From NCBI GenBank assembly GCA_044344195.1, contig JBIJDL010000001.1, forward strand, positions 1 through 54,036: DNA of 54,036 bases. Reading direction: 5' to 3'. A program made the position numbers and the translations under genes. Every line of letters starts with the position of its first letter. Within the stretch, counting starts at the first letter, position 1. The stretch comes from Candidatus Hydrogenedentales bacterium. Lineage in GTDB: Bacteria; Hydrogenedentota; Hydrogenedentia; Hydrogenedentales; JAEUWI01. Below are positions 430 to 37,720 of this stretch, piece after piece. A model generated the notes under the pieces. That model saw only the letters and a program-made list of their open reading frames with translations. It searched no databases and was not told where the DNA came from.

Positions 430-454
430 CGGGTCGCTCAAGCGCGATTGCTTC

Positions 455-840
455 CGTGATATTCCGTACTACTATCCGTCAACATCTTGCTTTTTCAGCA
501 AATTGACTTTCCACTACCCGTCATAAGTCACTTGGAAAAGCGACTTACAGTGTAAAGTAGAGGAAGAGCTATTTTCTGTGTTCTTGCTTGCTCAACTAAA
601 GAAATGCTGACCACGGAGTGCACGAAGGCACGGAGAAGACAAATGAGAGAGGGAAAATGGGAGAGACCATTTCGAACGTGAACGTACCACTACTCGGTAC
701 TGGCACCTTTGTACTCCTCTTCTTCTCCGCGCCTCCGTGTCTCCGAGGTCCAATTATATTGGTTGCGGCCAACGTCTGATCCAGGTCCTTCCGTGGTCAG
801 GAAGAAGGCTGACCACGGAAGACACGGAATTTCACGGAAT
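455..840 (-). repeat. Copy A of a dispersed MITE/REP-like intergenic element (core ~604-800, inverted relative to copies B and C; accessory module 455-480)
   Basis: The reverse complement of 604-800 aligns along its whole length with 19487-19678, including the identical run CGGAGACACGGAGGCGCGGAGAAGAA and the core GGCCGCAACCAA (759-770 as TTGGTTGCGGCC). Terminal inverted repeats are TGACCACGGA / TCCGTGGTCA. Module CGTGATATTCCGTACTACTATCC (455-477) recurs inverted at 42880-42904. Confidence 0.7.
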
Positions 841-4756: not shown

Positions 4757-6862
4757 ATGGGCCGTTTTACTCTGAGCCGCGCCGCGAAGCGCGAATGCGC
4801 CATCGGGGTCGCGATCTTTGTTCTGGCGTCCTTCTGGGGCATGGTGTATGTGTCCACCTGGGGCCGCACGGCGGATATTCTCCAGGCGAGCTATGGACCC
4901 TCGGTCATGCTGGCCTGCGGGCGGGGCTTTGTGAATCCGAAGGCTTCGGAGGTGCCCGAACTGGTGGCATTTCTGCAGCCCGATCAGCACCGCGACGGCC
5001 CGCCCCTGATTGATCGCTTCGATTGCGGTCTGCTGCCGGAGGATATGGCCATCGTGCCCTTTACCGGGATCCACAAGCGCACGTGGCATATGTTCTTCGT
5101 GGCGGGCTGGGTCTGGCGCGTTCTCGGCGTGGCCTGGTCGTCGCTGACCCCGCTCTACGGTCTGCTCTATGGCCTTTCGGCGGTGGCGGCCTATGCCCTG
5201 TTCCGGCTGTTGATGAACCCGCCCATTGCCCTCTTCTGCGCGGCGCTGTTCCTGATCTCGCCGATTCAGTTGCACTATCTCGTGCGCCTCCGCGATTTCG
5301 CCAAAGCGCCCTTCATGCTCTTCGCCCTGTTCTGTCTGCTGCTGTTGCTGGTCTATCCCAAGGGGTGGAAGCGCGCCCTGTGGTGCGGCGCGGCGGCCGG
5401 TGGGGCCATCGGCCTGGCCACGGGTTTTCGCGCGGAAGCGGTGATGTATGTGATCCTCTTCGTGCCCGCGGTGCTGCTCTTTTACCCCGGTTGGCGCTGG
5501 CCCGCGTGGGGCGCGCGTCTGGCGGCTACGGCGGCATTCCTCGCCTGCTTTCTTGCGGCGTCCTGGCCCGTGATGATGCAGTTCCAGACCTATGGCGAAC
5601 GCACCCATCCCTTCCTTATGGGCTTTGGCGTGTTCTACGACGGGCGCCTCGGCGCGGACAATCCGATGTATCAGGTGGCCCAGTCGGATCTTGATACCGA
5701 GGCGCTGGCCATGCACAACGCCCACAACCAGTACCTGGACGGCGCGGCGCGGCCCATCATCTACGAGACGCCGGGTTACGAGGCCGTGGGCGATGATTAT
5801 TTCTTCCGCAATCTGCTGTGGACCCTGCCCGGTGATCTGGCCACACGCACGGCGGCGGCCGCGCTGCGCATGCTGGATGAACTGCGGCCGAATCCCCAAG
5901 CCTTCATGCCCCGGGGCATCACGAACCGCTTCCTGGAGCCGCTCTATGAAGGGCGTGTCTGGCTGATGGAAACCCTCTTCAGCCGCACGCGCTATGTGGC
6001 CCTCGCGCTGGTGCTGCTGCTCGGGGCATTGAGTCCGCGCCTCGGTTTCCTTATGCTGTACTTGATGTTTTGCCTGGCGGGCATGGCCTCCGTACAGTTT
6101 GCGGCGCGGCACTACTTTCACCTGGAGGTAATACCGATCTTTCTCGGGGGCGCACTGCTCTACATCGCGTGGCGAGCCTGCGCGCTTGTGGGGAAGTCGG
6201 AGCGGACCTGGCTTGTGGAGCGGATCGGCAGCCGCGCCTGGTGGGTGGCGCGCTTGAAGTTCGGCGTGGTGTTCTCCGTCGCAAGTACCGCGCTGGTACT
6301 TTCGACTTTCTGGGGACTGCGCTGGCAACAGGATCGGCAGTTGCTTGCCCTGTTTGCGTCCTACGAGACGTCGGAACAGGACGCCGTCTGGCCCGCCGTG
6401 GCATCGGTCCAGGGCGGAGAAAAGGTGCGCCTGTCCTGCGATCCCGTGACCCTGCCCGAGGGATTGCCGGAATCGGGCCCCGAGGGCTTTTTCCAGGTGG
6501 ATCTGCTCGTGATTGAACTGGCGCGCACGGATCGCGAGGTGCCGCTCTTGTTTCGCTACGCGGGCGACACATCCGAGCGGGATCTGAGCTGGCACACGCG
6601 GGTTGTCGCGGGCAGCGACACCGTGCGCTACTACCTTCCAATCTATAACGCCGTGTGGCCCGACACGCCCGACTCGGCGGCCTGGGGCGAATTGCCGCCG
6701 ACCTGGACGCGCTTCGAGGGTATAGAGATGAACGTGGCGGATCTCGGTCAGTTGAAAGGCATTCACCGGATCCGCGAGGCTCCGGGCTACACACCCCTGA
6801 TCATGGCCGTGCTCGATGAAGGCTGGGAGACCCGTGGACTGTATCAGCGCTTTACGCGCTGA
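4757..6862 (+). CDS. Large polytopic integral membrane protein, function unknown (possibly GT-C-like glycosyltransferase)
   Basis: AGGAG lies 4 nt upstream of the ATG. The N-terminal ~480 aa contain many hydrophobic helices (e.g. FFVAGWVWRVLGVAW, LFCLLLLLVYP, VILFVPAVLLFYPGW), followed by a soluble C-terminal ~200 aa. It is convergent with rfbB. The GT-C idea is a guess from topology only. Confidence 0.7.
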   Translation: MGRFTLSRAAKRECAIGVAIFVLASFWGMVYVSTWGRTADILQASYGPSVMLACGRGFVNPKASEVPELVAFLQPDQHRDGPPLIDRFDCGLLPEDMAIVPFTGIHKRTWHMFFVAGWVWRVLGVAWSSLTPLYGLLYGLSAVAAYALFRLLMNPPIALFCAALFLISPIQLHYLVRLRDFAKAPFMLFALFCLLLLLVYPKGWKRALWCGAAAGGAIGLATGFRAEAVMYVILFVPAVLLFYPGWRWPAWGARLAATAAFLACFLAASWPVMMQFQTYGERTHPFLMGFGVFYDGRLGADNPMYQVAQSDLDTEALAMHNAHNQYLDGAARPIIYETPGYEAVGDDYFFRNLLWTLPGDLATRTAAAALRMLDELRPNPQAFMPRGITNRFLEPLYEGRVWLMETLFSRTRYVALALVLLLGALSPRLGFLMLYLMFCLAGMASVQFAARHYFHLEVIPIFLGGALLYIAWRACALVGKSERTWLVERIGSRAWWVARLKFGVVFSVASTALVLSTFWGLRWQQDRQLLALFASYETSEQDAVWPAVASVQGGEKVRLSCDPVTLPEGLPESGPEGFFQVDLLVIELARTDREVPLLFRYAGDTSERDLSWHTRVVAGSDTVRYYLPIYNAVWPDTPDSAAWGELPPTWTRFEGIEMNVADLGQLKGIHRIREAPGYTPLIMAVLDEGWETRGLYQRFTR

Positions 6863-6910
6863 TGTGGAGAGAAGGACAAAGGCGACCCGAAAGAAGTGGA
6901 TTCAAGAGGC

Positions 6911-6939
6911 GGGAGCGTCCGCGGTTCGCCGACGCTCCC
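6911..6939. terminator. Hairpin between convergent genes (weak bidirectional terminator candidate)
   Basis: GGGAGCGTC (6911-6919) / GACGCTCCC (6931-6939) with an 11-nt loop. There is no clear T-tract on either strand. Confidence 0.3.
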
Positions 6940-6992
6940 ATGGTGCATGATACATATCGATGATCTACGTCGATTCCCATTGCGGAATCAGC

Positions 6993-8003
6993 TCATGAAC
7001 CCTTCAACGCCGCGTACTGGCGCGCGTAGTATTCCTTGAACTCGCCGGATTTGATCTTGCGCCACCAGGTCTCGTTTTCCTGGTACCACTTCACGGTCGT
7101 GGCCATGCCGTCTTCCCAGGGCATGGCGGGCTGCCAGCCGAGGGCCTTGAGCTTGCTCGCGTCGATGGAGTAGCGGCGGTCGTGGCCGGGGCGATCGGGG
7201 ACCCACTGGATGAGGGATTCGTCGCGATCGGTGAGTTCGAGAATCTTGCGGGTGAGTTCGATGTTCTCCCGCTCGTTGCCACCCGCGACGTTGTAGATCT
7301 CGCCGGGCTGGCCGTTGCGCAGGGCGCAGTCGATGCCGGAGGCGTGGTCGTCAACGTAGAGCCAGTCGCGGACGTTGTGCTCGCCGCCCTTGTAGAGGGG
7401 GAGGGACTGGCGGTCGATGGCGTTGGTGGTGAAGAGGGGCAGGACCGTTTCGGGGTACTGGTGGGGACCGTAGGTGTTGGAGCCGCGGGTGATGATCACG
7501 GGCAGGTCGAAGGTATGGAAGTAGGACATGCCGATGAGTTCGCCGCCGGCCTTGGCCGCGCTGTAGGGGTTGCGCGGGGTCACGGGGTCACTTTCCTTGA
7601 AGGAGCCCTCGGGGATGCTGCCATAGACTTCGTCGGTGGAGACGAAGACCACCCGGGCGGTGCCGAGTTGCTTGGCGCATTCGGCGAGGTTCCACACGCC
7701 GTCCACGTTGGTACGGAGGAATTCCGCCGCGCCGAGGATGCTGCGGTCCACGTGGGTCTCGGCGGCGAAGTTCACCACTGCGTCGCAGCCCTCCATGGCT
7801 TTCAACATCGCGTCTTTATCGGCGATGTCGCCCTGGACGAAGGTGTGTCGCGCGGGGTCCACCCCGGCCACGTTCTCGAGGTTGCCGGCGTAGGTCAGCT
7901 TGTCCACGTTGACGATGTGAACTTCCGGGTGCTTTGCGAGCTGCCAGCGGACAAAAGCGGAGCCGATGAATCCGGCGCCGCCGGTGACCATGATGCGTTT
8001 CAT
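6993..8003 (-). CDS. rfbB: dTDP-glucose 4,6-dehydratase
   Basis: N-terminal Rossmann motif VTGGAGFIGS and SDR-extended catalytic motifs (STDEVYG, YSAAKAG). Length 336 aa. Its start overlaps the rfbD stop by 4 bp (ATGA). Confidence 0.9.
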   Translation of the reverse strand: MKRIMVTGGAGFIGSAFVRWQLAKHPEVHIVNVDKLTYAGNLENVAGVDPARHTFVQGDIADKDAMLKAMEGCDAVVNFAAETHVDRSILGAAEFLRTNVDGVWNLAECAKQLGTARVVFVSTDEVYGSIPEGSFKESDPVTPRNPYSAAKAGGELIGMSYFHTFDLPVIITRGSNTYGPHQYPETVLPLFTTNAIDRQSLPLYKGGEHNVRDWLYVDDHASGIDCALRNGQPGEIYNVAGGNERENIELTRKILELTDRDESLIQWVPDRPGHDRRYSIDASKLKALGWQPAMPWEDGMATTVKWYQENETWWRKIKSGEFKEYYARQYAALKGS

Positions 8004-8848
8004 GAATGGTGATTCCTTCGTTCCATGTAGTGGGCCAGAGCTTCGCGCCAGGGGCGCATGACATAGTTGGAGGCCGCGGTGAGGTCGGCCGTATCGAGGA
8101 CAGAGTACGCGGGTCGCGGCGCTTTCGAAGGGTAGTCGGCGGCCTTGCAGGGGCGCACGGGGATGGTGACCCCGGCCATTTCCAGGAAGGCCTGGGCGAA
8201 CTCCAGGCGGTTGCAGGCGCCCGTATTCACGGCGTGGTAGGTGCCAAAGTGCTGGGTCTTCGCCAGGGCCAGGGTGGCCTCCGCCAGATCCAAAGTGTGG
8301 GTGGGGGAGCCGAACTCGTCGTCCACCACGCTCAACTCGGGCCGAGTTTCCGCCGCGCGGAGCACCTTCTCCACAAAGTTGTTGCCGCCGGGGCCGTAAA
8401 GCCAGGCGGTGCGCAGGATGAAGTGGCGCGGGTTGGCTACAATGGTGGCATGCTCTCCCGCGGCCTTGGTCTTGCCGTAGACGCCGAGGGGCGACATGGG
8501 GTCTGTGGGCAGGTAGGGCGTGCCCTTGGTGCCGTCGAAGACGTAGTCCGTGCTGATATACACCACGGGGATCTGGTGATAGGCCGCAAGTTCAGCCACG
8601 TTGCGCGCGCCCGTCTCATTGGCCAGGAAGGCGGTGGTCACGTCATCCTCCGCGCCGTCCACATTGGTGTAGGCGGCGGCATTGACCAGGAGATCGGGCC
8701 CGAAGGCCTCCACGATGGGCTGGAGCGCCACTTCGTCGGCGATGTTCACCTCGGGCAAATCATGGCCGACGACTTCACATTCCTGTTGAAACACGGAAAT
8801 GAGGTCGCGACCCAACTGGCCCTTGGCCCCGAAAATAAGAGTGCGCAT
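8000..8848 (-). CDS. rfbD: dTDP-4-dehydrorhamnose reductase
   Basis: The family-typical N-terminus MRTLIFGAKGQLGRDL starts at the internal ATG (8846-8848). The 84 upstream codons of the ORF-track model (to 9100) have no family match and look non-coding. Confidence 0.85.
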   Translation of the reverse strand: MRTLIFGAKGQLGRDLISVFQQECEVVGHDLPEVNIADEVALQPIVEAFGPDLLVNAAAYTNVDGAEDDVTTAFLANETGARNVAELAAYHQIPVVYISTDYVFDGTKGTPYLPTDPMSPLGVYGKTKAAGEHATIVANPRHFILRTAWLYGPGGNNFVEKVLRAAETRPELSVVDDEFGSPTHTLDLAEATLALAKTQHFGTYHAVNTGACNRLEFAQAFLEMAGVTIPVRPCKAADYPSKAPRPAYSVLDTADLTAASNYVMRPWREALAHYMERRNHHS

Positions 8849-13887: not shown

Positions 13888-13956
13888 AGATGGCAATTAA
13901 CAATGGACAATTGACAATGGCCAACGGGCAATGGACAACTGGCAACGATAGGGCGG
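13888..13956. repeat. Tandem array of about five 14-nt units (consensus CAATGGMCAAYNGR)
   Basis: Units: AGATGGCAATTAA, CAATGGACAATTGA, CAATGGCCAACGGG, CAATGGACAACTGG, CAACGATAGGGCGG. The array lies in the divergent intergenic region between the transketolase and FHA-phosphatase genes. Confidence 0.7.
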
Positions 13957-14057
13957 TCAGGGCCAGTCCGCCCAATTGGCGAACCGCTGTCATGGGCCAT
14001 TTCACTTTATTCCATTGAATCTGTACAATGGCCCCTTGTCTCGATGAGGAGTATCAG

Positions 14058-15752
14058 GTGCTTCGGGGATTTCTCATAGTCGATGCCGACGGGCGCAAGG
14101 TGCCGATCGACGATTCTCTGGTCATTGGCCGCACGGCGGACAGTGGCCTGATGATCGACGACAACGCGGCGTCGCGCCGCCACATGGAGATCAAGGCCCG
14201 TCCGGACCGGTTTATCTGGAAGGATCTGGGCAGCACCAACGGCACGATCCTCAATGGGGCGAAGATGCTTGCGGGCGAGCTGAAGAACGGGGACAAGATC
14301 CAGATCGGCGAGACGACGCTCTCCTTTGTGGTGACGGGGCATGCGGAGACCCGCGATGGCGCGCCGGAGCCGATTGTGGAGGAGGGGCGCCTCTTCACCG
14401 AGACCATCATGGACCACCAGGGGATGGTCAAGAAGCCCCACGAGGGTCAGTCCAAGACCACCAAGCTCCTGGAGGCGGTCTATTCGGTCGCCAACGAGAT
14501 TGCCACGAACTACGACACCTGCAGCCTGATGGACGGGGTGCTGAAGAAGACTCTGAAGGCCATCAATGCCCAGCGCGGCGCGATCTTCCTGGCCAGCCAT
14601 GACGCCGAGCTAATGCCTTGCTCCGAGTGCGGCTATGTCCACAGTATCGCCAATGGCCAGTTGCACCCGGCCCAGATCGGCGATATTCTCATCAGCAGCA
14701 CCGTGGCCAGCCGCGTGATTCGCGATGGCGAGAGCGTGCTCTATCAGGACACGGACAGCGACATGGAGCTGAACGCTTCCGAGAGCATCATGTCGCTCCA
14801 GTTGCGCTCCATCATCTGCGTGCCGCTCCGCGCGAAACACGGCATCCTGGGCGTCCTGTACATCGATACGGACCGGCAGGATCAAAACTATTCTCATGAC
14901 GACCTGCTGCTGGCGGCGTCGGTCGGCAACAGCGCCGGGCTGGCGCTGGAAAATGCCCAGATGCACCAGCAGATCCTGGAAAAGCAGCGGATCGAGCAGG
15001 ATCTGGCCACGGCCTGGACCATCCAGGAAGGCTTCCTGGTCAAGGAATGGCCCAACGACCCCCGATTCGAGGTTTACGGCGAGACCCGGCCCGCGAAGAC
15101 CGTGGGGGGCGACTTCTATGATTATGTGCGCCGCGGCCGGGACAGCGTGGGCATCCTTATTGGCGACGTGAGCGGCAAGGGCGTGCCCGCGGCACTGACC
15201 ATGGCCCAGTTGCTGGCCCAATTCCGCCTGCTCTGCCGCGATCTGGAGAGTCCGGTGGAGGTGCTGAGCGAGCTGAATCGCGGCCTTGTGAAGCGCAGCC
15301 AGCGGGGCATGTTCTGCACGATGTGCTATCTTACGATCGATTTGAACACCGGCCAGGTGGTTTGCTGCAATGCGGGCCATCACCCCGCAGTCCAGATCGG
15401 GCGCAACGGGGTGACGACCTTCGGCGATGCCACGGGCCCGCCGGCGGGCATATTGTCGGAGGGCCCCTGGGTGGAGACCCGCTCCATTGTTACGCCGGGC
15501 GACAGCCTGCTGCTTTATACGGACGGCATAGTGGAGGCCCGGGCCACGACGACCCTGCTGGAGGGTGCGTCGTCCTCGCCTCCCGTGGAGTACGAAGAGG
15601 TAGGATTGCGCCGTTGCACGGGGCGCCTCTACGGCGAATCGGCCCAGGCGCTTATTGAAGCGGTCATTTACGATGTGCAGCGCTTCACGGCGCCCGCCGT
15701 GCCCCACGACGACTGCACGATGATGGCAATGAGGTATCTCGGTGCACGATAA
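14058..15752 (+). CDS. FHA-GAF-PP2C (SpoIIE/RsbU-type) serine phosphatase
   Basis: FHA domain: VIGRTADSGLMIDDNAASRRHMEI...GSTNGTILNG. A central GAF-like region follows. PP2C/SpoIIE motifs are GGDFYDYV, IGDVSGKGVPAAL, YTDGIVEA and DDCTMMAM. The GTG at 14058 has GAGGAG 6 nt upstream, whereas the ORF-track ATG at 14028 has no RBS. Confidence 0.85.
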   Translation: MLRGFLIVDADGRKVPIDDSLVIGRTADSGLMIDDNAASRRHMEIKARPDRFIWKDLGSTNGTILNGAKMLAGELKNGDKIQIGETTLSFVVTGHAETRDGAPEPIVEEGRLFTETIMDHQGMVKKPHEGQSKTTKLLEAVYSVANEIATNYDTCSLMDGVLKKTLKAINAQRGAIFLASHDAELMPCSECGYVHSIANGQLHPAQIGDILISSTVASRVIRDGESVLYQDTDSDMELNASESIMSLQLRSIICVPLRAKHGILGVLYIDTDRQDQNYSHDDLLLAASVGNSAGLALENAQMHQQILEKQRIEQDLATAWTIQEGFLVKEWPNDPRFEVYGETRPAKTVGGDFYDYVRRGRDSVGILIGDVSGKGVPAALTMAQLLAQFRLLCRDLESPVEVLSELNRGLVKRSQRGMFCTMCYLTIDLNTGQVVCCNAGHHPAVQIGRNGVTTFGDATGPPAGILSEGPWVETRSIVTPGDSLLLYTDGIVEARATTTLLEGASSSPPVEYEEVGLRRCTGRLYGESAQALIEAVIYDVQRFTAPAVPHDDCTMMAMRYLGAR

Positions 15753-16167
15753 AGACCTGTCCATAGTATTCCGGTCCTCCCCGAAGCTCCTGTGCGATAT
15801 CCGGGCTATGATCCGCAGCTACCTGATTAACCAGGGGGTCCAGGACGACAAAGTGCAGGAGCTGGTGCTGGCGGTGGACGAGGCCTGCACGAACGCCATC
15901 CGCCACGCCTACCGGGGCGCCCCGGACCAGTTTCTGGAACTTTCGATGGATTCGCGGGATGGATGGATAGAACTGGTGGTGCATGACGACGGGATTCCCG
16001 CGCCCTACGACCGGGTGCGGCGGAAGTCGGAAGAAGATATTCTGGCGGAGGCGTTGACCCCGGGGGGGCTGGGGATGCATCTGATATATAACGTCTTTGA
16101 TGAGGTGGAGTTCATGCCGGGCGATGGTCAGGGCAATACCATCGTAATGCGGCTGCGGAAAGTGTAA
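15742..16167 (+). CDS. RsbW/SpoIIAB-type anti-sigma-factor-like serine kinase (HATPase)
   Basis: N-box VDEACTNAIRHAY and G-box GGLGMHLI; 141 aa. GTG start with GAGG 7 nt upstream. It overlaps the phosphatase gene by 11 bp. Confidence 0.75.
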   Translation: MHDKDLSIVFRSSPKLLCDIRAMIRSYLINQGVQDDKVQELVLAVDEACTNAIRHAYRGAPDQFLELSMDSRDGWIELVVHDDGIPAPYDRVRRKSEEDILAEALTPGGLGMHLIYNVFDEVEFMPGDGQGNTIVMRLRKV

Positions 16168-16269
16168 CATGAGGGGGGAACATTACTCGGGATCATCCGC
16201 CACAGCCGGCGGCGGGAGCGTATGGGAGCTTGCCCGCCCGGCGGTGGAGATACATAAAGGTCTAATCGC

Positions 16270-16584
16270 ATGGCACTTGAGTTGAAACAGGTGGAGCAGG
16301 ACGGTAATTGCATCATCGAGGCGAAGGGCGAGATTGATCTGTACTCGTCGCCCCAGCTTCGGGAAGCGATTCTGAAGGCCTGCAAGACCACCAAACAGAA
16401 AGTGGGTGTTCGCCTTACGGATGTAGCCTATATGGACTCCTCTGGTGTCGCGACGCTGGTCGAGGGCCTGCAGGCGGCGGGAGGTGCGTCCTCCTTTCTG
16501 CTGCTGGCCCCGTCCCAGTCCGTCATGAAGGTCCTCCAGCTTTCCCGCCTGGACTCGGTATTCAGCATCGTGGAGCAGATGTAA
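16270..16584 (+). CDS. STAS-domain protein (RsbV/SpoIIAA-type antagonist; sits in the MlaB position)
   Basis: 104 aa. It carries the SpoIIAA-type phosphorylation context VAYMDSSGVATLVEG. Its stop lies 6 bp before the mlaE start. Confidence 0.8.
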   Translation: MALELKQVEQDGNCIIEAKGEIDLYSSPQLREAILKACKTTKQKVGVRLTDVAYMDSSGVATLVEGLQAAGGASSFLLLAPSQSVMKVLQLSRLDSVFSIVEQM

Positions 16585-16590
16585 CCGGCC

Positions 16591-17379
16591 ATGTCCGCCC
16601 TGCTGGGACACACGGGCCGTGCAACGCTGAACGGTCTCTACGCCACGGCCACGGTCTGCGTGTTGATGGTGGACACCGTCAACTGGCTGGTCTGGCAGCC
16701 CCTGCGGGGCAAGGGCCTGCGCGTGCGCAGCACCGTGGAGCACTTCGTGGAATTCGGCGTGCGCTCCCTGCCCATTGTGGGGCTCATTTGTGGCTTGATC
16801 GGCATCATTATGGCCCTGCAGGCGGCATACACACTGGAAAAATGGGGCGCTACCCAGCTCATTGCCGATCTGGTGGGAATCTCCGCCCTGCGGGAGCTAG
16901 CCCCGCTCATGACCGCCATCCTCATCACGGGCCGCTGCGGTTCGGCCATCACGGCCGAAATTGGCACCATGAAAGTCTCCGAAGAGATCGACGCACTCAA
17001 CGTCATGGGCCTCAACCCGACCAAGTTTCTGATCGTGCCGAAATTTCTGGCCATGATGATCGCGGTGCCCTGCGTAACGGTGCTGGCCATGTTGATCATG
17101 ATTTTGGGCGGTTTTTTTGCTGGTGTGGTGCTCGTGGGTGTGGACCCCGGCATCTATTTCCGGCAGACCGCCGAAGCGCTGACCCGCATGGATCTCATCT
17201 CCGGCCTGGTCAAGAGTTTCTTCTTCGGAATCACCATCTGCTGGGTGGGCGTATATCGCGGCTTCCGCGTGGACGGCGGCGCCGAGGGCGTGGGCCGTGA
17301 AACCACGTCGTCCGTGGTAACGTCCATTCTGATTATTATCGTCGTGGATTTGGTGTGGACCGCCCTGTTCTTCTCCTAG
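16591..17379 (+). CDS. mlaE: MlaE-family ABC transporter permease
   Basis: 262 aa, multi-TM, with MlaE-like segments (GIIMALQAAYTLEKWGA, ALRELAPLMTAILITGRCGSAITAEIGTMKVSEEIDAL). Confidence 0.85.
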   Translation: MSALLGHTGRATLNGLYATATVCVLMVDTVNWLVWQPLRGKGLRVRSTVEHFVEFGVRSLPIVGLICGLIGIIMALQAAYTLEKWGATQLIADLVGISALRELAPLMTAILITGRCGSAITAEIGTMKVSEEIDALNVMGLNPTKFLIVPKFLAMMIAVPCVTVLAMLIMILGGFFAGVVLVGVDPGIYFRQTAEALTRMDLISGLVKSFFFGITICWVGVYRGFRVDGGAEGVGRETTSSVVTSILIIIVVDLVWTALFFS

Positions 17380-17386
17380 AGATCCC

Positions 17387-18187
17387 ATGAGTGCTGAACC
17401 CGAAAATATCATCGAAGTCCGCGATCTCCGTGTGAAATACGGCGATCGCACCGTGCTCGATGGCGTGAACCTCACCGTGAAACGGGGCGAGGTTTTCGTT
17501 ATTCTCGGCGGCTCCGGGTGCGGCAAGAGCACGCTCCTGCGGAACCTGGTGGGCCTCATGCGGCCCCATTCGGGTAAGATTCTGTTCAAAGGACAGGATT
17601 TCACCGCGATGAACGATGAAGAGCGGGTCGAGGCGCGCAAGCAGATGGGCATGTGCTTCCAGGGCTCGGCCCTGTTCAACTCGCTCACTATCGGCGAGAA
17701 TGTGGCCCTGGCGCTGAAGGAGCATACGCGCCTTGAGTCCTCCACAATTGATATCATGACCAAGATCAAGCTGGAGTTGGTGGGCCTCGGTGGTTTCGAG
17801 CGCTTCATGCCCTCTGAGTTGAGCGGCGGGATGAAAAAGCGCGCAGGCCTGGCCCGGGCCATGGCGATGGATCCCGAAATCATTTTTTACGACGAGCCCT
17901 CCGCGGGCCTGGACCCCATCGTGGGCGCGGGCTTGGACGTGCTCATCCGCAAGATGCAGAGTACCTTTAACCTGACCAGCGTGGTGGTGACCCACGAAAT
18001 GGAAAGCGTGAAGCTCATTGCCGACCGTGTGGTCATGCTCGATAAGGGCAAGGTCATCGGTCTGGGCACGCTGGACGAAATACAGAAGATCGATCACCCA
18101 TTTATCGAACAGTTTTTCGCGCGCCGTCCCGACGCGGAAGGTGAAGACACGGCGAAGTATCTTCAGTCGCTTACGAGCACGGAGTAG
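17387..18187 (+). CDS. mlaF: MlaF-like ABC transporter ATP-binding protein
   Basis: Walker A GGSGCGKST, signature LSGGMKKR, Walker B IIFYDEPSAGLD, H-loop VVVTHE. Confidence 0.9.
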   Translation: MSAEPENIIEVRDLRVKYGDRTVLDGVNLTVKRGEVFVILGGSGCGKSTLLRNLVGLMRPHSGKILFKGQDFTAMNDEERVEARKQMGMCFQGSALFNSLTIGENVALALKEHTRLESSTIDIMTKIKLELVGLGGFERFMPSELSGGMKKRAGLARAMAMDPEIIFYDEPSAGLDPIVGAGLDVLIRKMQSTFNLTSVVVTHEMESVKLIADRVVMLDKGKVIGLGTLDEIQKIDHPFIEQFFARRPDAEGEDTAKYLQSLTSTE

Positions 18188-18237
18188 CGGGAAGCGCGGG
18201 TGTTCGCGTGATCGAAATGAAGCGGAGCGAATAGGCT

Positions 18238-19473
18238 ATGGCCAGTAAGAAGTACAATTTCACCCGGACCGAGTTTACGGCGGGCCTGATGGTGCTTGCC
18301 ACCGTGGCGGTGCTTGCGGGATTCGTGGTGGTGATCGAGAACCTCCGCGCCGAGCCGGAATATAAGACACTCTATGCGCGCTTCACCAGCACGGTGGGGC
18401 TCAATGCCAACGCCATGATTCGCTTTGGCGGCCTGGAAGTAGGTACGGTCGCCTCGGTGACCTATGACCCCGAGGACCAGTCCCAGATCCTGCTGGAATT
18501 GAAGGTCGACCCGAAGACCCCGGTGAACGAATCGAGCCGGGCCACCATCGAGCAGACCACCCTCACCGCGGAGAAACATCTGGAAATCTCCACCGGCACG
18601 AAAGACGCCGCGCTCGTTCCGGCCGGCGGCGATGTGGAGGTGATCAACAGCGGCTACGGCTTCATAGACATCCCCAATGTGGATGGACTCGTGGGCGGCA
18701 GCGAGTTGCTCATCGCGGATCTGCGCGATTTCATCGGCGTGGAAGCGGCCAAGAAAAACGAGGCCGAGGGTAAAGGCGAGCTGGCCAGCATCGAGCGCCT
18801 TGCGGGCGATGTCCGGGCGCTGCTGGGTGTGAAAGAGGCCTTGGAACGGCACAAGGCCGATGGCTCTGAGCCGGTCAACGTGGCGAAGCTCACCGAGGAC
18901 CTCGCCAAATTGCTGGGCGTGGAAGAGGCGGAGAAGGCGGCGGCGGCCGGGGGCGAAGAGTTGCCCAGCGTGACCAGGATTACCGGCGATGTGCGCGATC
19001 TCCTCGGCGTGAAGCAGGCGAAGGCGGTGGCGGGCGGAGCGGACCCGGCGAACGTGGAGAACATCATCGGCAATGTGGACGGTATGCTGGAGAAGTACGA
19101 TCCGCAGATCGGCACCATTCTGGAGAAAGTCCCGCCGCTACAGGATTCGGCGACCCGGGTGATGACGGGCGTGGCCACCACGCTGGAAGACAACAAGGAA
19201 AACATCGACAAGATCGCCTCGGACGTGAGCGGCGTTACCGCCACGCTGAATCAGGAGTTGGAGGCGACCCTGGCGGCCCTCACCGCGACGCTGGAACACG
19301 TCCAGGCGCTGAGCGGAGAGACCCAGGAGCTGGTGCACCAGAACCGCCCGGCCATCGAGGACCTGATGGGCGATCTGGGCCATCTGATACAGAATTTGAA
19401 TGTGCTGCTGGAGGACCTGAAGGCGCATCCGCAGGCGATAATATTTGGCAAGCCCGAGAGCGGGCGGAAATAG
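18238..19473 (+). CDS. MCE/MlaD-domain protein with a long repeat-containing helical C-terminal extension
   Basis: N-terminal TM helix (LMVLATVAVLAGFVVVI) and an MCE domain (RFTSTVGLNANAMIRFGGLEVGTVASV...LELKVD). About 270 aa of predicted helix follow, containing four ~30-aa repeats with the motif [D/E]x[R/A]xLLGV[K/E][E/Q]A. Confidence 0.8.
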   Translation: MASKKYNFTRTEFTAGLMVLATVAVLAGFVVVIENLRAEPEYKTLYARFTSTVGLNANAMIRFGGLEVGTVASVTYDPEDQSQILLELKVDPKTPVNESSRATIEQTTLTAEKHLEISTGTKDAALVPAGGDVEVINSGYGFIDIPNVDGLVGGSELLIADLRDFIGVEAAKKNEAEGKGELASIERLAGDVRALLGVKEALERHKADGSEPVNVAKLTEDLAKLLGVEEAEKAAAAGGEELPSVTRITGDVRDLLGVKQAKAVAGGADPANVENIIGNVDGMLEKYDPQIGTILEKVPPLQDSATRVMTGVATTLEDNKENIDKIASDVSGVTATLNQELEATLAALTATLEHVQALSGETQELVHQNRPAIEDLMGDLGHLIQNLNVLLEDLKAHPQAIIFGKPESGRK

Positions 19474-19486
19474 CACGACCGATCTT

Positions 19487-19678
19487 GACCACGGATAACT
19501 TAGAGCAGCCGTTGGCCGCAACCAAAGATTTGAACCACGGAGACACGGAGGCGCGGAGAAGAAAAGGAGTTTTCAGAGGCACCGGTGCCGGGTCACGGCG
19601 CGCTTGCGTTTGAAAAGCCCTCTCTTCCTTCCCTCCCCCATGTAGTTTTCTCAGTGCCTCCGTGCGCTCCGTGGTCAG
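19487..19678 (+). repeat. Copy B of the dispersed MITE/REP-like element (core only)
   Basis: It is bounded by TGACCACGGA (19486-19495) and TCCGTGGTCA (19668-19677). It contains GGCCGCAACCAAA (19514-19526) and CACGGAG words, and is homologous to 604-800 (inverted) and 42521-42784. It fills the 244-bp gap between the MCE and PqiC-like genes. Confidence 0.7.
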
Positions 19679-19717
19679 AACAATTTGGATTGCGGAACAT
19701 GCCGATAGGAAAAGCAA

Positions 19718-20284
19718 ATGGAATTTACTAGAGCCAAGCATGCATGCCTCGCATTGATTGTCACCTGTTTCGCGGCGGGTTGCGCCACGGCACCCGGCCC
19801 GAATCTGTACACGCTGAACATGGCCCCCGCTTCGGGGGACAGCGGCGGCGTCCAGATCGCCGTGGGGCGCCTGCGCATTGCGGAAGCGCTCCAGAACAAA
19901 CGGATCCTGATCAAGAAGAGCCCGACGGAGATCGAGTACTACGCGGCGGCCCAATGGGCGGCCGGGCTCGATGAACTGCTCGCGGAAAAGCTCGGCGTGG
20001 AGTTCGGCCAGCCGGACCCCGCCGGGGCCACCAGTGTACTTTCAGGCACCCTGCTCGCCTTTGAACAAGTGGACTCCGCTACCGGGGCCGAGGCCCACGT
20101 GCGCATCGCGGTCGAGATCCGCAAAGAGGGCACCAGCTATTACTCACCTCCCGCCCTGGCCAAGACCTACGATGTGCGCCTGCCCATCGCGGAACCTGCG
20201 GCGGGCGCGGTGGTGGAGGCGCTCTCGGCCTGCCTGGAGCAGGTGGCGCGGGCGATTGTGGCGGACACGTCCGCCCTCGGATAA
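19718..20284 (+). CDS. PqiC/YmbA-like ABC-transport auxiliary lipoprotein (DUF330-type)
   Basis: Lipobox CFAAGC after a signal peptide. Family-like features are PNLYTL near the N-terminus and YYAAAQWAAGLDELLAEKL. 188 aa. Confidence 0.65.
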   Translation: MEFTRAKHACLALIVTCFAAGCATAPGPNLYTLNMAPASGDSGGVQIAVGRLRIAEALQNKRILIKKSPTEIEYYAAAQWAAGLDELLAEKLGVEFGQPDPAGATSVLSGTLLAFEQVDSATGAEAHVRIAVEIRKEGTSYYSPPALAKTYDVRLPIAEPAAGAVVEALSACLEQVARAIVADTSALG

Positions 20285-20308
20285 CGGGCCTGGCCCAGGG
20301 AACAGAGG

Positions 20309-21106
20309 ATGACGGCAAACGCCAAGCGACAGGAACACCTTTCCGACTACGAGCGGGTCGTGTGTTACCACACCCTTCCGCGGACGAATCATCCGCTGAC
20401 ACTGGGGCTCATCGTCGCATACGCCGTATGCCTGCTGGAGGCGGTGGCGGCCATCGGGGTCGGTGTCTATCTCGAATGGGCCACCTGGCTCCGGGTGGGC
20501 TCCATCTGCTTCGTCGGCCTGATCCTCTTCGGGATCGTGGTCTTTACGGTTCGGGCTTTTCTCAACGAACTTCGCTCGCGCAAGGCACTGGCCGCCGCAG
20601 AAGGTGTGCCCGATGCTCGCGAGTCCGCCCAGGATTTCCCCGATCCTTTTGAAAGCCATATCCTGCTTCACCACCCTTCTCATACCCGGGGGACCCTGTT
20701 CAGCCTTACCGACAACCACGACACGAGCGGCTATATCGTAGAAATCGCACCGAGCCACAAGGGCTGGAAAATACGGGATATGGAGTCGGGCCATCAGATC
20801 CGCGTGCATATGGAAAAAGGCGGGCGCAGCTTCCGGTTTGGCGGCGTGCTGCCCGCCGTGGCCCGTGTGTACCGCGAAGGCGAGGAAGTGGCGATCCTCC
20901 GGCGCCCCTTCACCCTGAGCGACCTGGAGGTGGAAATCGAGTCCACCCGGCCCTCCGGCACCTTGCTCCAGTTGCGAAGCAAAGGTTTCTTTGCCGATAA
21001 TCGTCTCGTGGGCCGAGTCTACAATCTCCGGGGTTCCTGCTATCTCGATATCGATCAGGCCTATTTCAATGAAGGCGTGCTCGCCTATTTTGTGACGATG
21101 ACCTGA
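20309..21106 (+). CDS. Hypothetical membrane protein (2 TM helices plus a beta-rich C-terminal domain)
   Basis: AGAGG sits directly upstream of the ATG. TM helices are LTLGLIVAYAVCLLEAVAAIGVGVYL and VGSICFVGLILFGIVVFTV. The C-terminal ~150 aa have alternating beta-like patterns and no family motif that I recognise. Confidence 0.6.
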   Translation: MTANAKRQEHLSDYERVVCYHTLPRTNHPLTLGLIVAYAVCLLEAVAAIGVGVYLEWATWLRVGSICFVGLILFGIVVFTVRAFLNELRSRKALAAAEGVPDARESAQDFPDPFESHILLHHPSHTRGTLFSLTDNHDTSGYIVEIAPSHKGWKIRDMESGHQIRVHMEKGGRSFRFGGVLPAVARVYREGEEVAILRRPFTLSDLEVEIESTRPSGTLLQLRSKGFFADNRLVGRVYNLRGSCYLDIDQAYFNEGVLAYFVTMT

Positions 21107-21188
21107 GAGCGCGGTAGGGTAGGCGTGACAGCAATCGGTTTCGCTTGAGTCTGTTAAGGCATTTTAAGACAGGGGAGTATCCTGCACA

Positions 21189-21788
21189 ATGAAAGGTTCG
21201 TTTTTTCTCTCGATGATGGTCGCCGGCGCAGCGCTGCTGCTCTGCCCCGCCCCCGCCCGTGCCGACCTCGATCTGAAAGAGGGCATGTGGCGTCTGGAAT
21301 TGAACAATGACTTTGGCGTCCACCAGGGTAGCCAGGATCGCTCCGGCGACTACAGCGTCAGTGGCATCGTGGAGTATGAAGTTCCCGCAACGCCCCGTAC
21401 CACGCTCGGGCTGCGCATGATGCCCCTGTTTGCCTATTCACAGGACGGCGTCGACGACTACCGTCGCTTCCGCAAGATTCTTGATGACGATGGCAATGGC
21501 GGCGGCACGGTCTGGGGCGGCGGTTTCGGACTTGCCGGGCGCGTCTACCAGGTGAAGGAGGAGTACCGCGGCTGGTATGGTGAGGCCAGCGTGAGCACCC
21601 TGCTCCACAGCAACGAGTTCAACGGGAACAACTCCAACATTAATTTTGTCACGGGCCTCGGCGTGGGCTACCAGTTCAAGTCCGACTGGCACCTGCAGCT
21701 CCACTACCAGCACATCTCCAATGCCAGCCTCGGCACCAAGAACTCCGGCGCCAATTCCCTGGGGATCGGCGTGGGCTACCGCTTCTAG
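21189..21788 (+). CDS. PagL-like lipid A deacylase / acyloxyacyl hydrolase-type outer-membrane beta-barrel
   Basis: Signal peptide MKGSFFLSMMVAGAALLLCPAPARA. The body has amphipathic beta-strands. A His-x-Ser motif lies in HYQHISNASLG near the C-terminus, and the sequence ends with the terminal aromatic GVGYRF. Confidence 0.55.
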   Translation: MKGSFFLSMMVAGAALLLCPAPARADLDLKEGMWRLELNNDFGVHQGSQDRSGDYSVSGIVEYEVPATPRTTLGLRMMPLFAYSQDGVDDYRRFRKILDDDGNGGGTVWGGGFGLAGRVYQVKEEYRGWYGEASVSTLLHSNEFNGNNSNINFVTGLGVGYQFKSDWHLQLHYQHISNASLGTKNSGANSLGIGVGYRF

Positions 21789-27301: not shown

Positions 27302-27325
27302 AACGTCAATGCGAGCAGCCCATGC

Positions 27326-27532
27326 CGGGTGCCACCTCAATCGAGCAACGCTCGTTTGGGTGCCTTGAGGGAGGTGGATTGCATCCAACAAGCGAAACCC
27401 TAACCCGACTCGTTGGCCAGCGCCGAAAAATGCTCTCGCCGATTACCATGCCCGAAGCGGTCCGCTCTCGGCCTACAAGATACCTGCGCTCATCGCACCC
27501 AAACGAGCGTTGCTCGATTGAGGTGGCACCCG
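27326..27532. repeat. Perfect 37-38 bp inverted repeat flanking a 131-bp spacer (MITE-like or long-hairpin element)
   Basis: GGGTGCCACCTCAATCGAGCAACGCTCGTTTGGGTGC at 27327-27363 is the exact reverse complement of 27495-27531. The flanking C27326/G27532 pair extends it to 38 bp. Verified base by base. Confidence 0.9.
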
Positions 27533-27597
27533 ACGTCACGGATTCATGCCTGCGCAAATTTTGTTGTTCTTGTGCCCTACAAATGGAGAACCCAACC

Positions 27598-28116
27598 ATG
27601 GCGGAAGTACATCTGGTGGACGGCTACAATGTCCTGCACCAGTCGCAGAAGCTGCTTCACCTCGTCCGCCAGGACATGGAAACGGCGCGGGAGGCCTTCA
27701 TCGACAAGGTGGCCCATTTCTGCATCCAAACGGGGAAACACGTGGTGGTGGTGTTCGACGGGCGCGGCCCGAGGATCGTGCAGAAGGTGGCCCACAACCG
27801 CAGCGTGCCGTCCCTGGAAGTACTGTATTCACCGGGGCATTTGACGGCGGACGCGGTAATCGAGCGGATGGTGTACAAGACGCCGCGCAAGATGGATGTG
27901 GTGGTGGTGACCAGCGATCGGGGCGTACGCGATCTGTGCCGGGGCATGGGCGCGCTGGTGATGGACGCGGCGAATTTTCTGAGCAGCCTGGAGGAGACGC
28001 GGACGTCGATCCGGGAGACGGTCACCAACACGCGGAAGCCCTCGCCCAACCATCTTGAGGAGCGCCTCAACGCCGATTCGCTGGCGAAGCTCCAAGCGCT
28101 GCGGAAGAAACTATAG
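27598..28116 (+). CDS. YacP/NYN-domain (PIN-like) predicted ribonuclease
   Basis: MAEVHLVDGYNVLH N-terminus, VVVVFDG, and VVTSD with acidic residues, all typical of YacP-type NYN domains. GGAG lies 9 nt upstream of the ATG at 27598. The ORF-track start at 27322 would read through the inverted-repeat element. Confidence 0.7.
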   Translation: MAEVHLVDGYNVLHQSQKLLHLVRQDMETAREAFIDKVAHFCIQTGKHVVVVFDGRGPRIVQKVAHNRSVPSLEVLYSPGHLTADAVIERMVYKTPRKMDVVVVTSDRGVRDLCRGMGALVMDAANFLSSLEETRTSIRETVTNTRKPSPNHLEERLNADSLAKLQALRKKL

Positions 28117-29526: not shown

Positions 29527-32500
29527 TCACAAGACAGACCAGGTCAGGTCCACTACTTGAAAACGATCCCGGATCACCCGAAGACGCACCTCTCCGGAGA
29601 ATCCCCCCTCCAACGCGCTCGCGGCACGATCCACCCAATCCGTCAACTGGGCATAGCTGGTGATTGCGTTGCCATTAACCGCGGCGATACGATCCTGATC
29701 GCCCAAACCGAGTGCCGCCAGATCCTGCTCTTCCTTTGGGGTTGAAGTGGAGGGTAGCCAGATGCCATTCAGCGCATCCGGTCCCTCCAGACCGGCACCC
29801 CGGTCATTGTCCAACCGCTGACTGTATCTGGTCAGGAAATCCTGCTGGCTATGCAGGAGTTCGCGGGTATTGGCCAAGGCGACGCGCGCCCGATCACGGG
29901 GCACTTCAATGGTCCTGGCGAGGGTCAACAGGCCAGCCCGCCGGTGCTCGATGGTAATTTCGGTTCCTTCCCGCGCGAGGGAAAGGGTCAGCGTGCCACC
30001 GGAACTTCCGTCCGCTGCGGCGAAGGATTGGAGCGCCGCTTCGAGGGTCCGTTGATTGGCGCAGGTCGCGCCATTCAGCGTTGTGACGGAATCGCCGGGG
30101 ATCAATCCCAGCCGGGCCAGCGGGTTGGCGCTGTTCTCCGTATATAACTCGCTGTCGCGATCCCCGGCCCGTTTAACCAGGCGCTGGAGCGCTTCTTCTG
30201 CCACGGACGCGGGTGTGAGCGAAATGATGAAGTTCTGGTGGATCGAAAAGTCCCGGGTAGTTTGGGATCGCGAGCGCTTATATCCGCTCAGTACTTCAGC
30301 GGCAACGCCATCCGGTTTGCAGAGGGCCTTGGGAAAGGCGGACAGCACTTGCACAGAGTCCAACTGATTGCCAATGAGAATTCGGTCGTGGTCCGGGTCC
30401 AGAAGCAGGGAACCCATCTGGACATCTTCCGGCGGGGCGGGTGCGGCCACCTGCTGGCCGGACTTCGCATCCCACAACCTAAACCCGTCCTGCCTCGTCA
30501 GCCCGATCAGGCGTTTGCCGTCTCGGCCAAAGCCGAGCGAGGTCAGTACCGTGTTGGAGGCGCTCAAGGGAAGGGATTCCAGTGGCGTTTTCACGGAGAA
30601 GATTGCGGCGGCTTCCCCGTCAAAGGACGCGGCCACCGACTGGCCATCGGGACTGCAGGCCAGCACTGCCACCGGGGGGCCCGCTCCGCGAAGTTCCTGC
30701 TTGATGGAGCCCGAGCGGCTGTCCCAGAGCAGAATTCGGCCCGCGCGGTCCCCGGTCGCGATAAAGTCACCATCCGGCATGACGGCGAGCGCCAGAACAC
30801 GGTCGGCATGGTCGTCGAAGCGCAATACCTCCTCGCCCGTGCGACTGTCCCACAGATACACCGAGGAGCTGTCGCCCAGTGCCGCCACCGTCCGGCCCTC
30901 CTGGCAGTATTCGAGTGCGCGAATAATTCCCGGGCTTCCGGTCCACTGCGCCAATATTTCACCATCGGGAAGATGAAGTATCTGGGCCGTCTTTTCGCCC
31001 AATGCCGCCACGGCTTGATCACCCGCAGGGCTGACAGCGACTTGCAAGTTGAGGTTGGGCTCGAAGGAGGCCAGGGCCAGTATGGGCTCCAGGGAGGCAG
31101 CGTCGAGAAAGCGCGCGATGCCGTTCGAACTGCCCGCACCGATGATCGGGGCCGCTTCGGAGCGGGCGAGATCCACAATCCGATGCGGCGATGTGCCTGC
31201 CGTGGTTCTGCCGGTCTCGGGGATCTTCCACGCCTTGATTGCAGCATCGCCGGCGCAGGAATAGAACATTCCGTTGTCGTCGCCGAAGGCTCCGGCACGC
31301 ACCCAGTTTGAATGGCCTTTCAACGTGGTTACCGGGGCCCCGTCTTTCGTCCGGAATATCCGGATCTCATGGGGTGTGGCGGCCAGCGCAATTAGTTCGC
31401 TGTCCGGACTGAAGGCCAGGATGTGGGACAGGGCGTCGTTCTGAATCGTGGCTACGGGTTTGCTTGATGCGACATCCCAGAGGCGCATCACGCCATCCTC
31501 CACGAGCGCGGCGACGTGCTGTCCGGAGGGGCTGAGGACGGGCTGCTTTGGTTCGCCGGGAAGCTCCGGGCTTTCGAAGAGCAGCGCGCCCGACTCCAGT
31601 TCACGCACTTGAATGACGCGGCCGCTGCGCAGGGCGAAGCGTTCGAGGTTTTGGCTCAGGGTGGGTCCATAACCGATGAACTCCTGTTTCGCCTGGCCGT
31701 TGGTCACGTCCCACAGCACGGTGCGGCCGCTTCGGTCCGAGGTAAGGGCCAGTGCACCGTTCCGGCTCATCCCGAAAACCTGGCATGCGGCATCGTGGGC
31801 TTCAATCTGCCGGACCACGGCACCCGTACTGCAATTCCAGATGAAAAGGGATCCGTCACTCGTTCCGGAGGCCAGCATGGCGCCATCGCCGCTGAAAACC
31901 ACGCTGTCGAAGGACACCCCACTCTTCGTGAACTCATGGACAGGGCTGTAATTCTGGAAATCATAGAGTTGCACCCGACCGTCCACCCGCCCCACGGCCA
32001 GCCAGGCGCCATCCGGGGAAACCTCAGCCGTGGCCCCCGTCACGAGGGTCAGGGGGAGGCGATGCAAGGGGCTGAGGTCGGTGCATGCCCGGACCACCAG
32101 TTCATCCTGGGCGCTCAGCGAGAGCAGCCGTCCGCCGGGAGCGGTCCAAACACGGTGCACTTGTGCCTGTTGATCCACATTCGTGGCGTAGTCCTGATTG
32201 CACTGTTCAAAAAGCAGGCCCCACTCCAGGTTGCGCTGGGTGGCGGGCTGTTCGAGCAGCAGGTCCGTCGCTTGGTCAAAGGCCTGGCCTTCGATATGGT
32301 TCGCCGCCAGTTGGATATTGGCGCGGTAGGCGCTCCCTTCCGCTTCGGCGCGGGCGGCCTCTGCGGCGACGCGCTGGAGCCGTTCCCGGTGGTTTGCTTC
32401 GAGTATGTTGGCGTAGGCCGCGATCGCCACAATCAGCGTAATGGCGGCGGCGGTCATGGCGGTGTTGCAGAGGGCCCGGTTCCGGCGGTAGTAATGGCGG

Positions 32501-37668: not shown

Positions 37669-37720
37669 CTTTGACCTGTCATGCGATTGAGTTGAGTTAA
37701 GAAGTTAGTGCAGGTGTTGC

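Follow-up and report, generated by a model that had tools for sequence, protein, structure and literature searches.

A partner-switch phosphatase, kinase and STAS protein encoded with an Mpc-type transporter in Hydrogenedentota and other phyla: a candidate post-translational gate on lipid transport

We analysed a 54-kb window of a Hydrogenedentota genome (the whole stretch of DNA under study; all coordinates are window positions unless a relative is named), in which nine open reading frames (ORFs) on the + strand, all in the same direction, extend from 14028 or 14058, depending on the start codon taken for the first, to 21788. The first three encode a phosphatase, a kinase and a STAS protein of the kinds that make up bacterial partner switches, the next four an ATP-binding cassette (ABC) transporter with an MCE protein and an auxiliary lipoprotein, and the last two a protein of no assigned family and a PagL-family barrel. 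The junctions are, in order, an 11-bp overlap and then gaps of 102, 6, 7, 50, 244, 24 and 82 bp. An initial annotation made from the sequence alone had described the same nine co-directional genes, and its junction lengths agree exactly with the ORF coordinates. Pfam calls were scored against gathering thresholds, and all eight family-assigned genes pass under the domain names given there, gene 8 having no family. The genes, and the repeat element in the 244-bp gap, are as follows (lengths in amino acids, aa).

14058 to 15752, + strand: gene 1, FHA-GAF-PP2C phosphatase of the SpoIIE/RsbU-type PPM family (Pfam FHA 56.7, GAF 39.7, SpoIIE/PP2C 148 bits)
15742 to 16167, + strand: gene 2, RsbW/SpoIIAB-type GHKL serine kinase, 141 aa (HATPase_c_2 101 bits)
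16270 to 16584, + strand: gene 3, stand-alone STAS protein, 104 aa (STAS 55.7 bits; TIGR00377 73.8 bits)
16591 to 17379, + strand: gene 4, MlaE-family ABC permease (PF02405 257 bits; TIGR00056 252.8 bits)
17387 to 18187, + strand: gene 5, MlaF-like ABC ATPase (ABC_tran 116 bits)
18238 to 19473, + strand: gene 6, membrane-anchored single-MCE-domain protein, 411 aa (MlaD 58 bits)
19490 to 19717, + strand: dispersed palindromic repeat between the MCE and lipoprotein genes (further window copies; RNA fold)
19718 to 20284, + strand: gene 7, PqiC-type auxiliary lipoprotein, ABC_trans_aux / DUF330 (PF03886 51 bits; lipobox-like AAGC)
20309 to 21106, + strand: gene 8, 265-aa protein of no assigned family (no Pfam or NCBIfam match)
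21189 to 21788, + strand: gene 9, PagL-family outer-membrane beta-barrel (PF09411 57 bits)

The 80 GTDB species-representative loci nearest to the window's MlaE (43-98% identity) were fetched with MlaE as the query, and their ORFs were labelled with iterated hidden Markov models built from the window proteins; some counts cover 85 loci, the 80 among them, and the lineages of the loci were checked. The PP2C, kinase and STAS genes lie directly upstream of mlaE in 67/80 loci, where the recurring order is PP2C, RsbW-type kinase, STAS, MlaE, MlaF, long MCE protein and PqiC-like lipoprotein, with median inter-ORF distances of -8, 1, -1, -1, 22 and 3 nt. The rest of the tally comprises one locus in which kinase and STAS are joined in frame (L026) and loci with kinase and STAS only (3-4), with STAS only (2-4) and with none of the three (4). 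Three divergent relatives (58-68% STAS identity) repeat this seven-gene order among wholly different neighbours, and flanking genes are unrelated between loci generally. Since the same order recurs in 67 of the 80 loci with unrelated flanks, the arrangement is not due to chance. The unit is a seven-gene cassette of a GAF-PP2C phosphatase (with FHA here), kinase, STAS, MlaE, MlaF, long MCE protein and PqiC-like lipoprotein; of the nine-gene grouping first proposed this core stands, and the genes for PagL (4/80) and the 265-aa protein (25/80) fall outside it. Absence of the linkage from relatives had been named as the result that would speak against a functional module, and what we found is the rsbU-like, rsbW-like, STAS, mlaE, mlaF order, kept and closely packed in several phyla.

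The cassette occurs in Hydrogenedentota, in Thermoanaerobaculia and Sulfomarinibacteraceae (Acidobacteriota), in Calditrichota, in KSB1 and in metagenome-assembled genomes (MAGs) labelled Nitrospirales, as well as in single MAGs labelled Thermodesulfobacteriota, Chondromyces, Rhodothermaeota and Planctomycetia. At least three to four phyla share it, and some of the loci lie on contigs of megabase size or on complete chromosomes (L018, L034 and L071). Named STAS homologues come from Candidatus Hydrogenedentota, and a search seeded with a Calditrichia STAS returned MAG-derived proteins only, with no cultured host. The 102-nt kinase-STAS gap is peculiar to the window and its closest relatives. 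The STAS and mlaE ORFs of relatives often overlap by 1-4 nt and stay separate; in the window mlaE starts 6 nt past the STAS stop codon, again as a separate ORF and not as a fusion.

Variation between the loci affects the regulatory genes in a graded manner. Hydrogenedentota, Thermoanaerobaculia and some others have an FHA-GAF-PP2C phosphatase, Calditrichota and KSB1 a GAF-PP2C form without FHA, and one Acidobacteriota locus a bare PP2C at the 3' end instead. Of the two inputs to the phosphatase suggested at the outset, the GAF domain is thus retained in the Calditrichota and KSB1 versions, whereas FHA is lineage-specific. Kinase-STAS-mlaE without a phosphatase was found in L083, L062 and L086, and STAS-mlaE without a kinase in L076, L079 and L085; no kinase or phosphatase stands beside mlaE without STAS among the loci examined. 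As the losses are nested, phosphatase first and kinase next, STAS is the component closest to the transporter. In L086 (6501-8133) kinase, STAS and MlaE form an isolated trio, flanked by polA on one side and a convergent glycoamylase gene on the other; neither an MlaF nor an MCE gene adjoins them, so these three can travel without the remaining transporter genes. A Hydrogenedentota MAG (L026, 9297-9989) encodes kinase and STAS in one in-frame ORF of 230 aa, in which the kinase C-terminus enters STAS from about residue 15; the fusion may be natural, or it may have arisen as an artefact of assembly.

These comparisons bear on the simplest account of the locus, namely that the genes are co-transcribed with no mechanistic link, through a shared promoter or regulon or as a historical adjacency spread by horizontal transfer. 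MlaE is about 70% identical between Hydrogenedentota and Thermoanaerobaculia, which is compatible with the lateral spread of one block. However, the gene order survives in Calditrichota, KSB1 and Acidobacteriota, where MlaE identity falls to about 47-50%; within the block, whose flanks are unrelated, genes overlap at their stop and start codons; the linkage has outlasted the divergence of the phosphatase into forms with and without FHA; and the losses are nested rather than random. We therefore consider it very improbable that the genes are neighbours and nothing more.

The catalytic and phospho-acceptor motifs of the three switch proteins are intact, and to judge from the translations the parts look functional. 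Gene 1 matches SpoIIE (PF07228, 148 bits) over profile positions 3-191 of 192 and carries the PPM metal-binding motifs GGDFYD, DVSGKG, TDG and DD, together with the FHA phospho-Thr-binding motifs IGR, SRRH and TNG (GR, SxxH, NG). The best NCBIfam match of gene 2 is RsbW, with an equivalog score of 55 that lies below the cut-off of 145; by this measure the kinase is not an RsbW orthologue. Its N-box (DEAxxNxIxHxY), DxG motif (G1) and PGGLG (G2) are at least 90% conserved among 74 cassette kinases. The STAS protein passes the TIGR00377 anti-sigma-factor antagonist model (73.8 bits, cut-off 53.45), and its putative phospho-acceptors, S57 and S58, lie in YMDSSG at the N-terminus of helix alpha2. 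The motif Y[MIV]DSSG is present in 75/75 cassette STAS proteins, and DSSG aligns with SpoIIAA Ser58, with RsbV and with Thr52 of E. coli MlaB. STAS would be a full kinase substrate of the SpoIIAA/RsbV type, in contrast to MlaB.

Two possible sources of phospho-threonine for the FHA domain were noted near cassettes. The window encodes a 1442-aa Hanks-type Ser/Thr kinase with WD40 repeats at 29527-33855 (- strand), 8 kb downstream of the cassette, and in L062 a divergent gene for a Pkinase-PEGA protein (6044-8614, - strand) adjoins it. Either could serve the FHA domain; the association is not conserved.

In the transporter half, gene 4 passes the MlaE-family model TIGR00056 (252.8 bits, cut-off 212.2). 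The best PDB matches of gene 5 are the MlaF proteins of A. baumannii, P. aeruginosa and E. coli, and its best NCBIfam match is MlaF, where it scores 221 bits against an equivalog cut-off of 441. A C-terminal tail that extends past the ABC core, K-Y258-L-Q-S-L262-T, is conserved in most cassette loci. The MlaD domain of gene 6 covers residues 42-120 (MlaD equivalog score 61.9, cut-off 135), and its C-terminal third, residues 272-407 in a long helical region, matches the C-terminal needle of PqiB (E=7.4e-10, NCBIfam). No match to the MlaC or MlaA families was found among the nine ORFs with Pfam or NCBIfam. The initial annotation had called this a Mla/MCE lipid-transport cluster and had argued from the canonical Mla system, which the transporter is not; because MlaC and MlaA are lacking, the MCE protein is long and of the needle type (411 aa, compared with 183 aa for MlaD of E. 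coli) and the lipoprotein is PqiC-like, the transporter half is on its sequence Mpc-type, that is, a Mla-Pqi chimera. The model for this type is MpcEFDA of Brucella abortus, a Mla-Pqi chimera proposed to bridge both membranes, which likewise consists of a permease, an ATPase, a long MCE protein with a C-terminal coiled-coil needle and a PqiC-like lipoprotein (PMC12436622). It too lacks MlaC and MlaA and has a STAS module directly N-terminal to, or upstream of, MlaE. For the present transporter we infer both substrate and direction: it would span the envelope and move phospholipid between the inner and outer membranes.

In Brucella the STAS module, described as a MlaB homologue, is fused to the permease, MpcE being a STAS-MlaE fusion in the same N-to-C order as the two genes here (PMC12436622); STAS-MlaE fusions were also noted by Thong et al. 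(PMC5016091). No kinase or phosphatase has been described for the Brucella system, whereas here a separate and putatively phosphorylatable STAS protein follows a kinase and a phosphatase.

The class of the STAS protein was assessed by profile and by predicted structure. Its AlphaFold2 (AF2) model (predicted local distance difference test, pLDDT, 93) has the topology beta1-beta2-alpha1-beta3-alpha2-beta4-alpha3-beta5, with beta5 kept and without the final helix alpha4, the last helix of SpoIIAA. Positions G20, D23, P28, Y54, D56, S57, S58, G59, A61, E65, L94 and F98 are invariant, and the invariant and near-invariant residues are concentrated on helices alpha1 to alpha3. Profile E-values and TM-scores were 5.7e-27 and 0.89 for TM1442, 1.7e-19 and 0.84 for RsbV (bound to RsbW in the structure), about 1e-17 and about 0.8 for SpoIIAA, and 1.2e-5 to 1e-2 and 0.62-0.71 for MlaB. 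In the structure ranking TM1442, RsbV and SpoIIAA were closest and MlaB came 23rd, and hhalign gave STAS and MlaB a probability of 67%. By sequence and predicted fold the protein is of the RsbV/SpoIIAA/TM1442 type and only distantly MlaB-like, so that its likening to MlaB in the initial annotation has to be revised.

A sigma factor would be the usual companion of such proteins in Bacillus, where RsbU/RsbW/RsbV and SpoIIE/SpoIIAB/SpoIIAA comprise all three protein types with the same catalytic and phospho-acceptor motifs. None of the sigma-70 family was detected among about 30 large window ORFs with Pfam, nor in six-frame window ORFs of at least 60 aa with jackhmmer seeded with RpoE and SigF, which bears out the initial annotation on this point. 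Among the 85 loci a sigma-70-family ORF lies within 10 kb of the cassette in one, at a distance of 7 kb. The cassette thus differs from the Bacillus modules in having no linked sigma factor (in the window and in 84/85 loci) and in being embedded in a transporter operon; its phosphatase sensors, GAF with or without FHA, also differ from the RsbU-N or transmembrane domains of Bacillus. Partner-switch genes are, however, frequently unlinked to their targets.

An alternative built on this last point makes the transporter the sensor. STAS bound to MlaF or MlaE would report whether the lipid transporter is assembled or active, and its release or capture would alter how much kinase is available for an unlinked partner, a sigma factor or another regulator; the cassette would then signal envelope-lipid stress to transcription instead of gating transport. 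The STAS protein, kinase and phosphatase are indeed typical, in sequence and fold, of sigma-controlling partner switches, and there are non-canonical systems in which STAS is the output and acts on an unknown target, e.g. SypA and RbaV (PMC8256260). Such an arrangement is harder to reconcile with the 84 loci that have no sigma gene with the cassette, and with the behaviour of STAS itself, which remains with mlaE when the kinase is absent and is fused to MlaE in Brucella; retention and fusion are more readily expected of a subunit with a structural or regulatory role than of a messenger that diffuses. We regard the sensor arrangement as rather unlikely.

That STAS acts on the ABC core is what three independent lines of comparison point to, namely its position and the fusions described above, the precedent of E. 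coli and the tail of MlaF. In E. coli MlaFEDB the helical face of MlaB contacts MlaF, and Thr52 lies centrally in this interface; the T52E exchange reduces binding to MlaF, ATPase activity is lost in T52A, and MlaF is not retained on MlaE when MlaB is missing (PMC5016091, PMC7367683). Phosphoregulation of this STAS protein has been raised in the Mla literature as an untested hypothesis, with no kinase and no phosphorylation found (PMC5016091, PMC7367683). Residues Y261 and L265 in the C-terminal extension of E. coli MlaF pack against MlaB (PMC7367683), and Y258 and L262 of the window MlaF match them in spacing (i, i+4).

The same evidence bears on a classical switch with the ATPase as its target, in which the kinase would bind and inhibit MlaF, or block its docking on MlaE, and unphosphorylated STAS would lift this block by sequestering the kinase, without ever touching the transporter. 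This follows canonical RsbW-type logic and suits the constant adjacency of kinase, STAS and mlaE, as well as the in-frame ORF of L026 if that is taken to show kinase-STAS interaction. It is at odds with the STAS-mlaE pairs that have no adjacent kinase (L076, L079 and L085), with the existence of STAS-MlaE fusions, with the direct binding of MlaB to MlaF seen in solved structures (6XGY, 6XBD; PMC7367683) and with the resemblance of the MlaF tail to the E. coli tail that contacts MlaB. We think it distinctly unlikely.

We favour the reading that STAS is a phosphorylation-switchable equivalent of MlaB, whose unphosphorylated form supports the assembly and activity of MlaF-MlaE, with the kinase as the off switch and the phosphatase as the on switch; from gene context and sequence we put this slightly above even, at a probability of about 0.55. 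STAS is proposed as the MlaB-equivalent cytoplasmic subunit because its position matches that of the STAS domain at the N-terminus of Brucella MpcE. Unphosphorylated STAS would dock by its helical face on MlaF and the conserved C-terminal tail of the latter, and docking would support both assembly and ATPase activity. The adjacent kinase would phosphorylate S57 or S58, placing a phospho-serine at the start of helix alpha2, upon which STAS would be ejected or inactivated and transport would cease. The PP2C phosphatase would strip the phosphate and turn transport on again, itself governed by a ligand of its GAF domain and, in certain phyla, also by a phospho-threonine input through FHA. We infer STAS-MlaF binding, the sign of the phosphorylation effect and the input signals from comparison with the systems above. 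For the scheme in its widest form, in which the kinase/PP2C pair toggles an MlaB-type STAS and so gates an envelope-spanning phospholipid transporter post-translationally, via a GAF ligand and in some phyla Hanks-kinase signalling through FHA, we see the odds as even.

Several observations weigh against a phosphorylation-gated transporter. In E. coli the T52A and T52E results, taken together, misfit simple phosphoregulation (PMC7367683). As STAS here is far nearer to anti-sigma-factor antagonists than to MlaB, of which it is a distant relative only, a classical partner-switch output elsewhere in the genome is possible. The MlaF tail motif is degenerate in 11/58 cassette MlaFs and a vaguely similar tail occurs in L081, which is without an adjacent STAS gene; the tail was for these reasons rejected as a clean marker of STAS dependence and lends weak support. 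Because the loci were chosen by MlaE similarity, the figure of 67/80 holds for a single MlaE clade and does not extend to Mla systems as a whole, and several of the phylum labels rest on single MAGs.

Set beside known systems, the cassette shares with E. coli MlaFEDB the encoding of MlaE, MlaF, an MCE protein and a small cytoplasmic STAS protein in one operon (PMC5016091, PMC7367683), a Ser/Thr at the N-terminus of STAS helix alpha2, and a C-terminal MlaF tail in which a Leu follows an aromatic residue by four positions. It differs in the place of the STAS gene, which precedes mlaE here, while in E. coli mlaB closes the operon; in its SpoIIAA/RsbV-like STAS protein (DSSG, beta5 kept), for which MlaB is only a distant match; and in encoding both a kinase and a phosphatase, whereas for MlaB neither enzyme is known and phosphorylation has never been observed. 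Vibrio SypE/SypA, Bordetella BtrU/W/V and Rhodobacter RbaV are alike in that what the phospho-switchable STAS protein controls is not a linked sigma factor (PMC8256260). The direct targets of SypA, BtrV and RbaV are unknown or are not transporters, whereas here the gene context and the STAS-MlaE fusions name the MlaFE ABC core as a candidate. Non-sigma outputs of partner switches (SypA, BtrV and RbaV; PMC8256260) and STAS proteins on Mla and Mpc transporters are therefore already known; what appears to be new is the linkage of a kinase-phosphatase switch to such a transporter. In the literature searched we found no paper that links a kinase/phosphatase partner switch to a Mla or MCE transporter, and a 2021 review of STAS-only proteins makes no mention of Mla (PMC8256260).

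Upstream of the cassette, in the divergent intergenic region that separates it from a transketolase-like gene, two further features were recorded.

13890 to 13947, + strand: tandem array of a 14-nt unit (CAATGGACAACTGG), about 3.5 copies (Tandem Repeats Finder, TRF)
14001 to 14029, + strand: sigma-70-like promoter match, TTCACT, 17-nt spacer, TACAAT (consensus match)

The array lies 55-110 nt upstream of the promoter-like site and may be a candidate regulator-binding array. The region holds four promoter consensus matches where 2.5 are expected, and the site at 14001-14029 is a consensus match only. Downstream of it GAGGAG (14046-14051) precedes GTG 14058, and homologues begin at an equivalent V/M-x-R-G-F; for these two reasons GTG 14058 is the better start for gene 1 than the alternative ATG 14028. 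A terminator scan found no more candidates than shuffled sequence would give, and none that was convincing in the 102 bp between the kinase and STAS genes.

The repeat that interrupts the operon at 19490-19717 (+ strand) folds as one long hairpin (-98.9 kcal/mol, z = -5.0). As the initial annotation had held, it is a repeat, with other copies at about 430-815 (- strand) and 42515-42910 (+ strand), making three in 54 kb. Most relatives have no repeat here and a MCE-lipoprotein gap of about 3 nt. An Rfam scan of the whole window matched no family, so the repeat is not a known RNA; it is a dispersed palindromic element resembling a miniature inverted-repeat transposable element (MITE) or a repetitive extragenic palindrome (REP). 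One of these copies lies in a stretch at 42445-43806, about 1.3 kb without a convincing ORF and with low third-position GC; Pfam gave no match for either of its two long ORFs.

The 265-aa protein of gene 8 has a conserved N-terminal segment, two long membrane helices, a conserved PDPF linker and an all-beta domain of about 150 aa with a terminal helix (AF2 model, pLDDT 74). A search of 5.8 billion proteins yielded 63 homologues, all of about 265 aa and all unannotated. Its gene follows the lipoprotein gene in 25/80 loci, with 28 ORF matches across 85 loci, and within the 80 loci it is confined to Hydrogenedentota-type lineages; the protein is a lineage-specific accessory of the cassette. A tubby- or scramblase-like fold, suggested by the all-beta domain with its terminal helix, was considered for it and dropped, as Foldseek found no fold match in the PDB (best E 0.011, TM 0.12).

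PagL, the lipid A 3-O-deacylase, is an eight-stranded outer-membrane barrel with a His-Ser-Glu catalytic triad. Gene 9 matches PF09411 over residues 113-198 (57 bits, cut-off 23), and its translation shows a signal peptide, an H-I-S-N motif and a C-terminal F; no acidic residue was found at the expected triad spacing, and there was no PDB sequence match. As a PagL gene follows the cassette in four of the 80 loci (L006, L007, L008 and L016), it stands outside the conserved cassette and is a lineage-specific addition.

Elsewhere in the window, a 44-nt inverted repeat (27326-27369 and 27489-27532, 95% complementary, with 119 nt between the arms) is found where the ORF 27322-28116, called as a YacP-like NYN-domain protein, begins; the gene may therefore truly start downstream of the repeat. 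Short GC-rich repeats of the form CAGGGAC(N)GCAGGGAC, direct and inverted, occur at 37733-37797 and 41008-41093; one site is near the start of a pterin-binding-protein ORF (37708-38709) and the other in the gap between pdxJ-like and tilS-like genes.

How the flow of lipid between the two bacterial membranes is regulated is largely unknown. As kinase, phosphatase, phospho-acceptor STAS and transporter are here encoded together, the hypothesis of MlaB phosphoregulation becomes directly testable with purified proteins. Mpc-type Mla-Pqi chimeras, described in 2025 from Hyphomicrobiales, occur also in distant and mostly uncultured phyla. If STAS is indeed switched by phosphorylation as proposed, this would be the first known partner-switching module with an ABC lipid transporter as its output, and would supply the first natural kinase and phosphatase for the hypothesised phosphoregulation of MlaB at the T52-equivalent residue. 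It would also extend partner switching from the control of transcription to the direct control of a membrane machine.

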